IMG/VR virus record: IMGVR_UViG_2778261454_000002
Coordinates: 1 to 19,434 of that record
Reading direction: 5' to 3' (one strand)
DNA from: a virus
Taxonomy: Duplodnaviria; Heunggongvirae; Uroviricota; Caudoviricetes
Length of the DNA stretch: 19,434 nucleotides
Shown here: piece after piece, positions 8,501 through 12,393 of the stretch
How the letters are laid out: the number at the start of each line of letters is the position of its first letter
Numbering within the stretch: position 1 is the stretch's first letter
The notes under the pieces: generated by a model
The model's input: only the letters and a program-made list of their open reading frames with translations
Database searches by the model: none
Told to the model about the DNA's origin: nothing
Translations under genes and position numbers: made by a program

Positions 8501-9136
8501 ATGAGCACTAAATTAACCGGCTATGTATGGGATGGTTGCGCAGCGTCAGGCATGAAATTATCCAGCGTGGCAATTATGGCCCGCCTGGCTGATTTCAGTA
8601 ATGACGAAGGTGTGTGCTGGCCATCAATTGAAACCATTGCCCGCCAGATTGGCGCGGGGATGAGTACCGTCAGAACGGCTATCGCACGGCTGGAAGCAGA
8701 AGGCTGGTTAACGCGTAAGGCGCGTCGCCAGGGTATCTGCATCATCGTCTGCCTGTCATGGGCTGTTAATCATTACCGTGATAACGCCATCGCCTATAAA
8801 GAACAGCGCGATAAAGCCACGTCTATCATCGCTGATATGCAGAAGCGTCAACGTGATGTAGCAGAACTTGACGCCAGATACACAAAGGAGCTTGCTGATG
8901 CTAATGCGACTATCGAAAGTCTCCGTGATGATGTTTCTGCTGGGCGTAAGCGCCTGCAAGTCGCCGCCACCTGTGCAAAGTCAACGACCGGAGCCAGCAG
9001 CATGGGCGATGGAGAAAGCCCAGGACTTACAGCAGATGCTGAACTCAATTATTACCGTCTCCGAAGTGGAATCGACAAGATAACCGCGCAGGTTAACTAC
9101 CTGCAGGAATACATCAGGACGCAATGCCTGAAATAA
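8501..9136 (+). CDS. Chimeric ORF: replication-initiator-like HTH N-terminal domain (about 78 aa) fused in frame to the C-terminal part of i-spanin Rz
   Basis: N-terminal [34 protein letters not shown] is an HTH typical of phage O-like initiators. From [19 protein letters not shown]... onward it is colinear with lambda Rz ([20 protein letters not shown]...[19 protein letters not shown]...LRDDVAAGRRRL...). Junction near nt 8735. Confidence 0.7.
8904..9083 (+). CDS. rz1: o-spanin Rz1 lipoprotein, embedded in the +1 frame of Rz
   Basis: Inside track ORF 8868..9083; [18 protein letters not shown] has a lipobox (LLGVSAC) followed by a Pro-rich segment ([16 protein letters not shown]), as in lambda Rz1. 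Start codon chosen by me. Confidence 0.7.
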
Positions 9137-9159: not shown

Positions 9160-9235
9160 ATTTAATGAGCCTCGCGATGCGGGGCTTTTTGCAATAAATG
9201 CGTACCGCAACGCATGTTTTTTACACCGAACCTGC
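9160..9235 (+). terminator. Two tandem hairpin/T-run elements downstream of Rz
   Basis: AGCCTCGC-GAT-GCGGGGCT followed by TTTTT, and ATGCG-TACCGCAA-CGCAT followed by GTTTTTT. Coordinates approximate. Confidence 0.4.
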
Positions 9236-9337
9236 CCCTTTGGAATGGGCCTTTGAGGATACCAGTTAGTGCTGGCGAGCCTCGGTGGGCTGGTTTCCTG
9301 TGCGGCAAAGGTTCATTTCAAAGAGTAGGTACACGCT

Positions 9338-9835
9338 ATGAAATCATTAACCCTCTTCAATCAACCAATTCGTATCGGTGAAGATGGCATGATCTGCCTC
9401 ACTGATATGTGGAAAGCCAGTGGTAAAAGTGAATCTGAATCGCCTTACCACTACCTGCGAAACAAGCAGACCAAAGAGTTCTTAGCCGAGCTGGAGAAAA
9501 ACCACGAATCTGTGGTTTTTACTGAGCGCGGTGTACACGGTGGAACATATGGCGGGAAGTTTGTTGCTTACGATTATGCGGCTTGGTTAAACCCCGGGTT
9601 CAAGTACGCGGCCTATAAAGTCCTCGATGACTACTTCACAGGAGAACTTCAGCATCGCAACAGCTTAAGTGCGCAGCTCAACATGAAATGTCATGAGTTT
9701 GACCAGAAGAAAGACATGGCGAGTTTCTGCGGACAAGGGCTGGCGGCATGGCGCTATACGAAGCCAGTGTTGGTCGCTGAGATTAACTCCCTGGCTAACC
9801 AGCTGCAGATTACGATCCCCGGGCTTCCGGGATGA
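9338..9835 (+). CDS. KilA-N domain protein
   Basis: 165 aa; N-terminal pattern (FNQPIRIGEDGMICLTDMWKASGK...) matches the KilA-N DNA-binding domain as recalled. Confidence 0.65.
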   Translation: MKSLTLFNQPIRIGEDGMICLTDMWKASGKSESESPYHYLRNKQTKEFLAELEKNHESVVFTERGVHGGTYGGKFVAYDYAAWLNPGFKYAAYKVLDDYFTGELQHRNSLSAQLNMKCHEFDQKKDMASFCGQGLAAWRYTKPVLVAEINSLANQLQITIPGLPG

Positions 9836-10183: not shown

Positions 10184-10342
10184 ATGACTTTAGCTGAACG
10201 TGTAAAGAGAATTGAGAGCGAATTAAAAGACATTAAATCGCAACTCAATTCTGGTACCGATTCTAGGAAAACAGCAAAAGCAATGCCCTTATCCAGTCTT
10301 GCAAAAGAGGGAGGTATCCCTGGGGGGTTAGTTAAAAAATGT
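10184..10342 (+). CDS. Small hypothetical protein (52 aa)
   Basis: Not in the track; AAGAGG RBS 6 nt upstream of ATG; predicted MTLAERVKRIESELKDIKSQLNSGTDSRKTAKAMPLSSLAKEGGIPGGLVKKC; its 3' end overlaps the convergent protease gene. Confidence 0.3.
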
Positions 10343-10792
10343 TAACTCAAATACTTGATTGGAAAAATCCATCGTAAGGGCGCCCATTTTAATTAGTTGC
10401 ATTCCGAAAACGACTTGGAATTTTCTCCCGTTACTTACCAATGGCACTGAAGTCAATTCTGTTGAAAAAACTCTTTCGTCCTCAGTGAACGATATTACCG
10501 CATGCCGAACTGTAGTTTCTATTGTTGAGGTGGCTCCGCTCACAGTTGTTTTTTCCGCGATTGGGAGTTTTAAATCGTCAGCAAAGTCTGAATCCACATA
10601 GCAAAGATCTGCTCCGGTATCTATAAGTGCGTAGGCACCAGCCTTCAATCCATTTGGTTTATAAACGTTTATATCTTTTGAGCTACTTGGCCATACTGTC
10701 AATGGAACTACGGGAATTGCATGCTCCGTGGGGGTATCTGATACCGATCCATCAATAGGGGAAATAAACTTGATTTTTACTTTGGTGATCAT
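10328..10792 (-). CDS. Retropepsin-like (clan AA) aspartic protease
   Basis: 154 aa; catalytic-type motif ALIDTGADLCYVD (D-T-G-A) and C-terminal GMQLIKMGALTMDF resembling the retropepsin dimerisation strand; AAGGA RBS. AT-rich, opposite orientation to its neighbours, with its own upstream intergenic region. Confidence 0.65.
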   Translation of the reverse strand: MITKVKIKFISPIDGSVSDTPTEHAIPVVPLTVWPSSSKDINVYKPNGLKAGAYALIDTGADLCYVDSDFADDLKLPIAEKTTVSGATSTIETTVRHAVISFTEDERVFSTELTSVPLVSNGRKFQVVFGMQLIKMGALTMDFSNQVFELTFFN

Positions 10793-11051
10793 CCTTTTTC
10801 CTTCGAAGAGTTATTCAGCCATTCCTCCTCTTTGCGTGAATCAGTGTCCCACCACTGACGGGCTGAATGCTTACCTTACCCGGGGTTAAAACGAAGTAAT
10901 ACCCTGATATTCAGACAGTAACCGCATCGCGCGGCATTTATGCGCATCGCACGCGCACATCAAAGAAAGTCTTTCAGCTGTGAGCCTGGGCAAACCGTTA
11001 ACTTTCGGCGGCTTTGCCGTGCGACAGGCTCACGCCTAAAAGGAAATACCC

Positions 11052-11216
11052 ATGAAATATTTATCGCTACAACAGGCGATGCTCGGCATGCGAGTAATCA
11101 TGACCGATGATGGCCTCATTTTGAAAAGCCCGGCAGGTAGTGCGCATTACGATCTGAAAGGTCGACGCCATACAGTTTGGGGGATGCTTCTTTCTTCCCG
11201 GAGCATATGCGTGTGA
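11052..11216 (+). CDS. Small hypothetical protein (54 aa)
   Basis: Not in the track; ATG about 8 nt after AAGGA; overlaps the next ORF in a different frame. Confidence 0.3.
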   Translation: MKYLSLQQAMLGMRVIMTDDGLILKSPAGSAHYDLKGRRHTVWGMLLSSRSICV

Positions 11217-11725
11217 AGGATAAGCGTAAGCCTAATCTCAGCCGTATTGTTTTTGAGAAAGACTGCACGACTATTTATGGTGCTGATGGAAAACCACAAG
11301 CACGCATAGGTAACTGGGATAAACCGGGAGAACCAAAAGGCTGGCGAATCCAAAAAGACGGCGCGTATATAACGTCTTATGAATTCAATCCTAAGAATAA
11401 TTTTAATGAGAACGGCCAGCAGTATGCAGCTGGAATGGTCGTTGGTATTGATGTGCAAAAGGGCAATGCAGCTGTTAATGCCAATCAATTTAAGTCTCCG
11501 ATAGAAGCACCAGATCCAATAACCGAGAGCATTTTAGAAAATGCACTTTCAACCCATGCTGCTAATAAAAACATCCAGGCCCTCATCAACCAGCAAGCAA
11601 AGGAGATCGTGGAAATGAAACAGGGCTTTGCCGAGTCTGTAAAAAAGGAGCTGGCTAAGCATCTTCGCCATGGTGGATTGATGTGGTCTGCATTAGTCAA
11701 GCGAAGTAGACGTTTAGACGTCTAA
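11207..11725 (+). CDS. Hypothetical protein (172 aa from ATG; track ORF begins at TTG 11177)
   Basis: Long ORF with no family recognised; the last gene before cos, where lambda carries bor and accessory ORFs. Confidence 0.5.
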   Translation: MRVKDKRKPNLSRIVFEKDCTTIYGADGKPQARIGNWDKPGEPKGWRIQKDGAYITSYEFNPKNNFNENGQQYAAGMVVGIDVQKGNAAVNANQFKSPIEAPDPITESILENALSTHAANKNIQALINQQAKEIVEMKQGFAESVKKELAKHLRHGGLMWSALVKRSRRLDV

Positions 11726-11886: not shown

Positions 11887-12393
11887 ATGGCCGTGCTATT
11901 GAATAAATCTGATATGGCTTCCTCGCTGGGAATATCCGTCCAGGCCTTTGATAAATGGGGTGTCCAGCCAGTAGAAAAGAGAGGGCGAGAAGTCTTCTTT
12001 GACGTTCGTTCAGTCGTTGATAACCGCATCGAACACCAGAGTCGAAAACTACAACCATCGCCGGGAGAAGACGATGATAGTGTCAATATTGATTATGAAC
12101 GTTGGCGTTTAACTCGTGCTAATGCGGATGCGGCTGAGCTGGCCAATGAGAAAAAGCGTCGCGAGGTCGTAGAGACTGCGTTTTGTACCTTCGTGTTATC
12201 CAGAATTGCCGCTGAAATATCCAGTATTCTGGATGGCATACCCCTTTCGATGCAGCGCCGGTTCCCTGAGCTGGAAAATCGGCATATCGAGTTCCTGAAA
12301 GGGGACGTAATAAAGGCAATGAATAAGGCTGCGGCGCTGGATGAACGGATTCCGGGGTTGTTGAATGATTATATCGACCAGTCAGGTAGCTAA
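11887..12393 (+). CDS. Nu1: Terminase small subunit Nu1
   Basis: 168 aa; C-terminal two-thirds almost identical to lambda Nu1 (VVETAFCTFVLSRIA.EI.SILDG.PLS.QRRFPELENRH..FLK...IKAMNKAAALDE.IPGLL); GAGGGA RBS. Confidence 0.9.
   Translation: MAVLLNKSDMASSLGISVQAFDKWGVQPVEKRGREVFFDVRSVVDNRIEHQSRKLQPSPGEDDDSVNIDYERWRLTRANADAAELANEKKRREVVETAFCTFVLSRIAAEISSILDGIPLSMQRRFPELENRHIEFLKGDVIKAMNKAAALDERIPGLLNDYIDQSGS

Follow-up and report, generated by a model that had tools for sequence, protein, structure and literature searches.

The stretch of DNA analysed here (the window) comprises the 19,434 nucleotides (nt) of the IMG/VR virus record IMGVR_UViG_2778261454_000002 (Caudoviricetes), and its genomic setting is the late region of a lambdoid prophage. 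Positions 10793-11051 form a 259-nt spacer between a protease gene on the minus strand and an open reading frame on the plus strand. The question raised by this locus is whether the palindromes in the spacer are regulator sites of divergent promoters or parts of a structured RNA; an earlier note, made from the letters of the sequence, had proposed both. The element of interest, termed here the leader, is the 3′ ~114 nt of the spacer; positions 10793-10920 are a separate, less conserved stretch. Comparison of copies from many phages shows a conserved, predicted fold with two pseudoknots that is joined to the ribosome-binding site of interchangeable late-region genes. It is probable, at roughly 60%, that this is a cis-acting leader RNA that gates translation of interchangeable late-operon cassettes.

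Architecture and comparative support of the leader RNA

The whole leader, which belongs to the sequence type termed A, extends on the plus strand from the first base of helix P1 to the downstream ATG (positions 10941-11054). P1 (10941-10957) is a hairpin of UGCGC (10941-10945) and GCGCA (10953-10957) with a 7-nt loop, AUCGCAC. This loop contains the 5′ strand of the first pseudoknot, PK1 (UCGCAC, 10947-10952), which pairs with GUGCGA (11019-11024), the 6 nt that bulge out between the 3′ strands of P4 and P3. The 5′ strand of the second pseudoknot, PK2 (GAAAGU, 10965-10970), is in the linker just 5′ of P2 and pairs with ACUUUC (11001-11006) in the apical loop of P4. P2 is formed by CUUUCAG (10971-10977) and CUAAAAG (11036-11042); it has a conserved C10975·A11038 mismatch, and a U10970·G11043 pair can lengthen the helix. 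In P3, GUGAGCCUG (10980-10988) pairs with CAGGCUCAC (11025-11033), the two strands being the outer inverted repeat. P4 is a distal stem-loop (10989-11018) in which GGCAAACCG (10989-10997) pairs with CGG(C)UUUGCC (11009-11018) around an apical loop at 10998-11008, and its stem contains the inner repeat. The order of the strands is P1(5′)-PK1(5′)-P1(3′)-PK2(5′)-P2-P3-P4-PK2(3′)-P4′-PK1(3′)-P3′-P2′.

The inverted repeats had been listed in the earlier note, with coordinates accurate to within 1-2 nt. Reading of the sequence and a repeat search both place GTGAGCCTG (10980-10988) opposite CAGGCTCAC (11025-11033), and the inner repeat GGCAAA (10989-10994) opposite TTTGCC (11013-11018). The GC-rich palindromes are also as described (ATGCGCAT at 10940-10947; GCGCG at 10929-10933 and CGCGC at 10952-10956). 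According to the repeat search, the complementarity of the outer repeat extends to 18 nt at 83%, and there is a 7-nt complement of 10947-10953 with 11018-11024. It is confirmed that the nested repeats at 10980-11033 are helices P3 and P4, that the palindromes at 10940-10957 are P1, and that all are parts of one RNA element. A structured non-coding RNA, as had been suggested, is strongly supported by covariation, but it takes the form of a cis-acting 5′ leader joined to a Shine-Dalgarno (SD) sequence and an ATG and is not a free-standing RNA gene. The difference in GC content from the protease gene, also remarked upon, is present but minor (~50% for the spacer vs ~42% for the gene).

More than 170 copies of the family were collected. 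A megablast search with 1.6 kb around the site shows that other phages match over ~10937-11048 only. This stretch precedes differing genes, e.g. HK639 gene 13 (in the tail cluster), a 280-amino acid (aa) gene in Fraca and gene 076 in mEp213. The type-A element is 93-99% identical in phi80, HK639, mEp213/043/237/390, Fraca and others. A more sensitive search also detected it in Salmonella FSL SP-016 and, with 70-80% identity, in Klebsiella, Enterobacter and "Elizabethkingia" phages. Scans of IMG/VR with exact patterns, one for P2/P3 and one for P1 only, gave at least 120 loci each. At least eight divergent types (A-H, plus subtypes of A) display the same six helices with different sequences.

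A covariance model, R1, was built from 50 diverse copies. It matches the window at full length on the plus strand (124.5 bits, E-value = 6e-29), and on the minus strand it matches the hairpin alone (20.6 bits). At the E-value limits used there were 86 and 88 R1 matches in two sets of loci. The covariance analysis across homologous loci that the earlier note had proposed was run on 77 distinct copies, in an alignment made with the model and fitted to the nested helices. In this alignment 91.4% of the cells are in standard pairs vs 84.7% after shuffling (0/500 shuffles) and 26-48% with slid partners; both sides change in 30 of the 37 scored pairs, vs 12.3 expected from shuffles (0/500). An alignment made by MAFFT, independent of structure, gives 86.8% paired cells vs 82.5% shuffled (0/500) and 27-50% with slid partners, with both-side changes in 21 pairs vs 10.1 expected. 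RNAalifold independently predicts P1, P2 and P3. The repeats are thus conserved among homologous loci, the opposite of what the earlier note had named as grounds for giving up its suggestion.

The individual helices of the 77-copy alignment are not equally variable. In P1, 95.6% of the cells are paired and four of the five pairs show a compensatory change; in P3 the values are 96.4% and eight of nine (type B has GAUGACCCUUG/CAAGGUUCAUC). Six of the eight pairs of P2 covary, and type C, for example, has CCUACAG/CUAUAGG. P4 is the most variable helix, with six of eight pairs covarying and an extra inserted hairpin in some types.

PK1 is outside the model. Its cells are paired in 97.9% of cases and all six pairs (6/6) change on both sides, the variants being UCGCAU/AUGCGA, UCGUAC/GUACGA, UCUCAC/GUGAGA, UGCCC/GGGCA, CGCUC/GAGCG and CCGCA/UGCGG. 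PK2 was judged type by type, with Watson-Crick pairs only; it was not scored by columns because MAFFT mis-registers P2 and PK2 in divergent types. A perfect complement of 5-8 bp between linker and apical loop is present in 13 of 13 sequence types, and the sequences differ between types (GAGAG/CUCUC, CGAUA/UAUCG, CUCAGAA/UUCUGAG, CCCAGAG/CUCUGGG, CCCUAAG/CUUAGGG, CGCAGAG/CUCUGCG and CCACAGAG/CUCUGUGG among them). Compared with shuffled linkers, P per type is 0.005-0.10. The cognate linker and loop give the longest match in most types, the exceptions being closely related A-subtypes and ties. When G·U pairs were allowed, the comparison of cognate with non-cognate pairs did not discriminate, because many types are similar.

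Among 16 representatives of types A-H, the conserved positions lie almost all within helices. As far as sequence comparison goes, the compensatory changes show six predicted helices, two of them pseudoknots (PK1 and PK2). The element thus has what is generally expected of a structured cis-regulatory leader RNA, i.e. a conserved structure supported by compensatory changes. The folding check that had also been proposed gave a weaker result: the single-sequence fold beats shuffled sequences, but modestly (z = -2.3, with 2 of 200 shuffles as good). The significance of the fold comes from the comparative evidence, since single-sequence folding alone is weak.

The conservation is not explained by an encoded peptide. 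An open reading frame at 10940-11110 (56 aa) was considered and rejected: element lengths are 107, 108, 111-116, 122 and 127-137 nt, i.e. they vary in steps that are not multiples of three, and the conservation is therefore not protein-coding. The ATG at P1 is not conserved either, many copies having TTG, CTG or no such codon.

A search with Rfam 15 (4227 models, among them riboswitches, ribozymes, phage RNAs, C4, IsrK and JUMPstart) gave no match in the whole window at the gathering threshold and none in positions 10780-11240 at E-values up to 10. With 13 loci that carry eight element types, the gathering threshold yielded only tRNAs and one isrJ, all elsewhere than in the element. The isrJ match (an Hfq-binding small RNA, 62.6 bits) is at 164-237 of locus L005 (Enterobacter phage CobraSix), downstream of a putative antiterminator gene, and is unrelated to the leader. 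An antisense partner acting in trans was rejected, as the flanking loci have no other stretch of 11 nt or more that is consistently complementary to the element. Integron attC, RfaH ops/JUMPstart, nut boxA/boxB, sigma54/24/32 promoters and IHF sites were rejected by inspection only.

The ribosome-binding site and the cassettes

An open reading frame starts 17-20 nt after P3, on the same strand, in 109 of 110 parsed copies (one at 13 nt); in the remaining copy the locus ends first. The 3′ strand of P2 is at the same time the upstream half of the SD sequence. In the window, the P2 strand and the SD sequence together occupy 11036-11045 on the plus strand (CUAAAAGGAA), and G11042 and G11043 of the SD are inside or at the end of P2. 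The helix covaries yet stays complementary to the SD, as the type C strands exemplify. Ensemble folding of the window copy (without pseudoknots) gives unpaired probabilities of 0.03 and 0.16 for the two SD guanines. In 14 copies folded, the corresponding paired SD bases have an unpaired probability of 0.14 or less, except the second G of type C (0.35), and pairing of the SD guanines is predicted for all 14. The element therefore has a fixed position and orientation relative to an open reading frame, with the SD sequence in the structure.

Annotated gene starts do not always agree with this arrangement. In phi80 (locus L007) the leader occupies 909-1040; the annotated rha coding sequence (1002-1556) begins inside it, and the ATG behind the leader is at 1038. 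Features annotated as "Rha family transcriptional regulator" by PGAP also underlie the leader match in many genomes of E. coli (hits H170-H180). Many starts of PGAP Rha-family coding sequences may thus have been called too far upstream; the start of phi80 rha, and apparently those of many "Rha family" coding sequences, can be corrected, as they begin inside the leader.

On its 5′ side the element is usually preceded by an intrinsic terminator (a GC stem plus a T-run), which ends 0-3 nt before P1 in 82 of 112 distinct contexts. In other contexts the element begins 8 nt past the double stop codon of the upstream open reading frame, and the context is therefore polycistronic. In the window, a degenerate remnant of a terminator abuts P1 (10922-10941, plus strand; CCGC-AUCGC-GCGG, then CAUUUAU), with a stem of 4 bp and an interrupted T-run. 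A motif 5′ of this remnant, CCTGATATTCAGACAG at 10903-10918, recurs in phi80 (CCTGATATAAAGACAGG), mEp213 and loci L024, L035 and L101; it is not a Fur box.

The proteins encoded downstream fall into 11 unrelated clusters. J/tail-tip-like mosaic proteins follow 73 of 110 copies and a 485-aa glycosyltransferase follows 14 of 110; further clusters are an HNH endonuclease and small proteins of unknown function. A sister variant of the leader, found before phi80 rha, adds Rha, KilA-N and GIY-YIG proteins. The J-like mosaics (11052-11725 in the window; 2615-3343 in L007; L014, L020, L037 and others) have variable N-terminal modules and a conserved C-terminal ...KPGGLLY/PGGxIW. They share fibronectin-III and "tail tip" modules with the central tail fibre J, have a PDB match to the F2-pyocin tail fibre, and are free-standing J-like fragments encoded beside cos.

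In several phages there are two cassettes whose leaders differ in type. In tandem cassettes (L136 2747-3358, L145 12052-12663, L167 575-1187) a terminator, a type-E leader and a small gene are followed by a terminator, a type-A leader and another small gene. The leader starts are ~475 bp apart, the spacing being filled by terminator, leader, gene and next terminator. Shortened copies are present at joints with unrelated DNA (L055, L114, L115, L132, L139, L141, L143, L151 and L158), and such truncated copies mark what by their sequence are putative recombination joints. HK639 gene 13 is located in the tail cluster between annotated terminators, that of the major tail gene and its own. The copies of the window, phi80 and HK620 are located after Rz.

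At 9199-9335 on the plus strand, the window contains another, divergent copy of the leader. It is of type H and is located 3 nt upstream of the ATG of a KilA-N gene (9338-9835). With filters off, R1 gives 26.8 bits (E-value = 5e-5); by eye, P1, PK1 (CCGCA/UGCGG), PK2 (CACCGA/UCGGUG), P3 and P2 are all present. Upstream of it, after Rz, there is an intrinsic terminator (GAGCCUCGCGAUGCGGGGCUUUUU, 9168-9190, plus strand), whose stem-loop is identical to the "putative rightward transcription terminator" annotated in phi80. The second copy is behind this terminator, and the window therefore carries two cassettes.

The window variant is found in 229 of 5426 complete E. coli genomes (~4%), including DH5alpha (phi80dlacZ prophage) and Nissle 1917; there is no annotation at the leader in the DH5alpha and Nissle 1917 copies. 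The sister variant is found in 916 of the 5426 genomes (~17%) and in 152 phage records, which include HK620, HK106, 73 Stx2a-converting phages, P22-like Salmonella phages and Sf101. A scan of genome contigs with a loose pattern gave three real copies among the 120 loci listed (Entomohabitans, Superficieibacter and Enterobacter), and the genuine matches in genome collections are all from Enterobacteriaceae. The taxonomic spread is based mainly on the hosts named in phage records. The element is also present in MH178096.1 (Aeromonas phage AsXd-1, 97% identity) and OM284015.1 (Elizabethkingia phage EKP1, locus L004, 79% identity), each time in a lambdoid lysis-gene context, and the non-enterobacterial host labels of these two phages look doubtful.

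Readings of the element

If the leader gates translation, the following course of events can be proposed. The leader would have no promoter of its own and would be transcribed as part of late, Q-antiterminated read-through RNA, usually just behind a terminator. The folded leader would hold the ribosome-binding site in P2, an AU-rich, mismatch-bearing helix whose stability may depend on the tertiary fold, and would limit or gate translation of whichever accessory gene follows. The genes served (e.g. Rha) may be harmful or wasteful if overproduced in lytic growth. The structure may be opened or locked by a protein or RNase III, by temperature or Mg2+, by a small ligand, or by a ribosome that terminates just upstream. 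The conserved sequence could double as a homology joint by which cassettes of terminator, leader and gene are swapped between phages. We know of no explanation so far for the regulation of rha, with its growth block in IHF-deficient hosts. The gene rha belongs to the late operon, and its product reportedly prevents phages from growing in hosts that lack IHF (cited in PMC4936722). This property of Rha fits a need for keeping such genes down.

Several points weigh against the gating reading. We infer the functional role throughout from the DNA. Almost no unpaired nucleotide is conserved across types A-H, as would be unusual in a ribozyme or in a riboswitch that binds a ligand. A simple hairpin could suffice to occlude the SD sequence, and this role alone leaves both pseudoknots unexplained. 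In type H the SD is mostly just 3′ of P2 and not inside it. Furthermore, the best counts come from an alignment fitted to the nested helices, the absence of a promoter is based on a simple sigma70 consensus scan, and the balance of G·U and A·C pairs alone does not settle the strand.

A broader reading is offered tentatively, as the odds are somewhat against it. The leader class may be a portable "expression plug" of late-operon cassettes in lambdoid, P22-like and Stx phages, through which one common signal co-ordinately switches translation of unrelated genes, e.g. rha, kilA-N and the genes for nucleases, glycosyltransferases and J-like proteins. The signal would be a protein of phage or host, RNase III, a small molecule, or temperature or Mg2+.

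Should the gating reading be true, an RNA that has so far been unannotated is present in about one-fifth of complete E. coli genomes. Its carriers include DH5alpha (in the phi80 remnant) and Nissle 1917, the majority of Stx2a-converting phages, and, among the classic phages, phi80, HK620 and relatives of P22. It would be a shared post-transcriptional control point for "moron" or accessory genes, rha among them, and would give a concrete sequence basis for the shuffling of accessory genes between phages. Common laboratory strains and phages would allow a direct test of the reading.

Of the rival explanations, a role in RNA processing, stability or insulation survives best, although it is unlikely as the sole function. 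The element would be a cleavage site of RNase III or RNase E, cleave itself, or block scanning by RNase E, and each cassette mRNA would gain a defined, context-independent 5′ end behind the terminator hairpin. The location, in polycistronic late RNA with a terminator hairpin on one side and a cistron on the other, is in line with this. The Stx2a/E types, moreover, have an uninterrupted P2-P3 duplex of ~22 bp, which matches an RNase III substrate in size, and the early mRNAs of T7 carry intergenic RNase III sites. Ribozymes like that of hepatitis delta virus (HDV) are also compact double pseudoknots in which few single-stranded bases are conserved. However, no Rfam ribozyme or other family matches even at an E-value of 10, the order of helix strands is unlike the topologies of HDV, twister and pistol, and the retention of the SD within a covarying P2 points to translation. 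A self-cleaving ribozyme (HDV-like, twister, pistol, hatchet or hammerhead) is unsupported on the first two of these grounds. Processing and gating are not mutually exclusive, and both can hold.

Rather less probable is a riboswitch, i.e. an aptamer for a small molecule or ion that, once bound, locks P2 and shuts translation off, or acts in the opposite sense. A length of ~95 nt, several helices, two pseudoknots and an SD in the closing helix resemble SAM-II, preQ1-II and preQ1-III, and the covariation is strong. The genes downstream, on the other hand, have no common metabolic theme (11 unrelated clusters), there are nearly no conserved unpaired nucleotides across types, and Rfam gives no match.

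The reading of the spacer as divergent promoters, with the palindromes as DNA operator sites, was put forward in the earlier note and is largely refuted for 10941-11054; as an account of the spacer it is very improbable. The flanking genes are divergent, and the minus-strand protease gene needs a promoter somewhere in 10793-10940; TGCGC-N7-GCGCA is a dyad, and genes downstream of the leader in phi80 relatives are annotated as "Fur-regulated". However, a sigma70 consensus scan found no site on either strand of 10793-11051 and none beside either phi80 copy. A Fur-regulated promoter, suggested by the annotation "Fur regulated protein", was rejected, as the Fur box GATAATGATAATCATTATC has no match in the window at up to three mismatches. 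What the helices retain is complementarity and not sequence, and this extends to long-range and pseudoknot pairings, for which a DNA operator would have no use. The distance to the SD and ATG is fixed, and the upstream neighbour is usually a terminator or a co-oriented open reading frame and not a divergent gene. The promoter/operator reading is unsupported because sigma70 and Fur sites are lacking, complementarity is kept over sequence, and the element is only the 3′ ~114 nt of the spacer.

Equally hard to maintain is the idea of a mere recombination "linker", a boundary sequence for module exchange with no RNA function: near-identical sequence beside unrelated genes in many phages, truncated copies exactly at mosaic joints and the analogy with the promoter-early stem-loop (PeSL) cassettes of T4-type phages (PMC2839356) speak for it, but a homology patch requires identity and not compensatory changes, at least eight types keep the six helices, and differing types within one phage would hinder recombination between copies.

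Genomic surroundings and known systems

The cassette gene behind the leader (11052-11725, plus strand) is frameshifted into 54 and 182 aa. The 54-aa open reading frame of the earlier note is thus present but is merely the 5′ fragment of a 224-aa gene with a 1-nt deletion at ~11183. An intact IMG/VR homologue (L098) has the 224-aa gene with 98% identity, the window copy being 1 nt short at that position; the split gene is either a pseudogene or the result of a sequencing error. The product is a J (tail-tip)-like mosaic protein of the phi80 gp66/N15 gp59 type, and the phi80 gene 66/N15 gp59 group is located just before cos. The match to Pfam Phage_Tail_Tip is weak (17.8 bits, below the cut-off of 22), and the PHROG matches are to families of unknown function. 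Further downstream are nu1 (at 11887) and terminase A (at 12365). The head genes of the window are ~93% identical to those of phage N15, and position 1 of the N15 genome (the left end, cos) aligns at ~11799 of the window; cos therefore sits between the cassette gene and nu1.

On the other side, the protease gene (10328-10792, minus strand) encodes a retropepsin-like aspartyl protease of 154 aa (Pfam Asp_protease_2, with a DTGA motif). It occupies a lower-GC patch between the two cassettes of the window, and PADLOC gave no match for it. The KilA-N gene of the second cassette is of the KilA-N/ORF11CD3 kind. The open reading frame with the Rz domain (8501-9136, plus strand) has an N-terminal HTH_36/GntR-like match joined to the C-terminal Rz lysis domain, and could be a fusion or an over-extended open reading frame call.

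The leader is regarded as a new leader RNA family because it has no Rfam match, because no paper on it was found, and because it lacks the defining features of SD-sequestering pseudoknot leaders, PeSL and morons. By mode of action it comes nearest to the SD-sequestering pseudoknot leaders, and by its behaviour in genomes to PeSL and morons. A literature search with exact strings of several types gave no paper with the element sequences, the older papers on phi80/P22 rha and the HK620 "linker" being outside this search; a keyword search gave only the PeSL analogy.

PeSL are mobile cassettes of T4-type phages (Arbiol et al. 2010, PMC2839356). Like them, the leader is a short conserved module with a terminator stem-loop, and a joint for shuffling; PeSL precede non-essential ORFans in hyperplastic regions of the genome (PMC2839356). 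As in PeSL, the repeated module is found at the boundaries of variable open reading frames, with recombination joints inside it. Unlike PeSL, which consist of a sigma70 promoter and a terminator, no promoter was found here, and the conserved part is an RNA fold of 110-137 nt joined to the SD. The phage groups also differ, PeSL being known from T4-type phages and the leader from lambdoid and P22-like phages.

Morons of lambdoid phages, in the account of Juhala and co-workers from 2000, are reportedly units of promoter, gene and terminator. The resemblance is in the single accessory gene between late genes, flanked by terminators, e.g. HK639 gene 13. In contrast to morons, no promoter of its own was found by the sigma70 scan, and a shared structured leader is not part of the moron concept.

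The put RNAs of HK022 and HK639 are antiterminators located just downstream of the early promoters and upstream of terminators, with no link to an SD sequence. Both put, with its two hairpins, and the leader are cis-acting structured RNAs in lambdoid transcripts, and HK639 carries a copy of the leader. Unlike put, the leader follows terminators; it is part of cassettes in the late region and occurs in phages with Q.

RNA thermometers of the fourU and ROSE types are simple hairpins. As in these, a U-rich strand (CUUU) pairs with the SD purines in a weak helix, here with a conserved C·A mismatch; unlike the thermometers, the weak helix of the leader closes a double pseudoknot of six helices.

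Leaders in which a pseudoknot sequesters the SD include the SAM-II and preQ1-II/III riboswitches and the operators of the E. coli alpha operon (S4) and rpsO (S15). The leader differs from these in having no sequence or model similarity (Rfam, E-values up to 10) and in serving many unrelated genes, vs one regulon or autoregulated operon. In common with them, a helix strand is or abuts the SD, and folding would thus control access of the 30S subunit; the S4 operator is likewise a nested double pseudoknot of ~100 nt. The topology found here is distinct from that of these leaders: there is a kissing contact of a hairpin loop with an internal bulge, and the apical loop is paired with a linker on the 5′ side.

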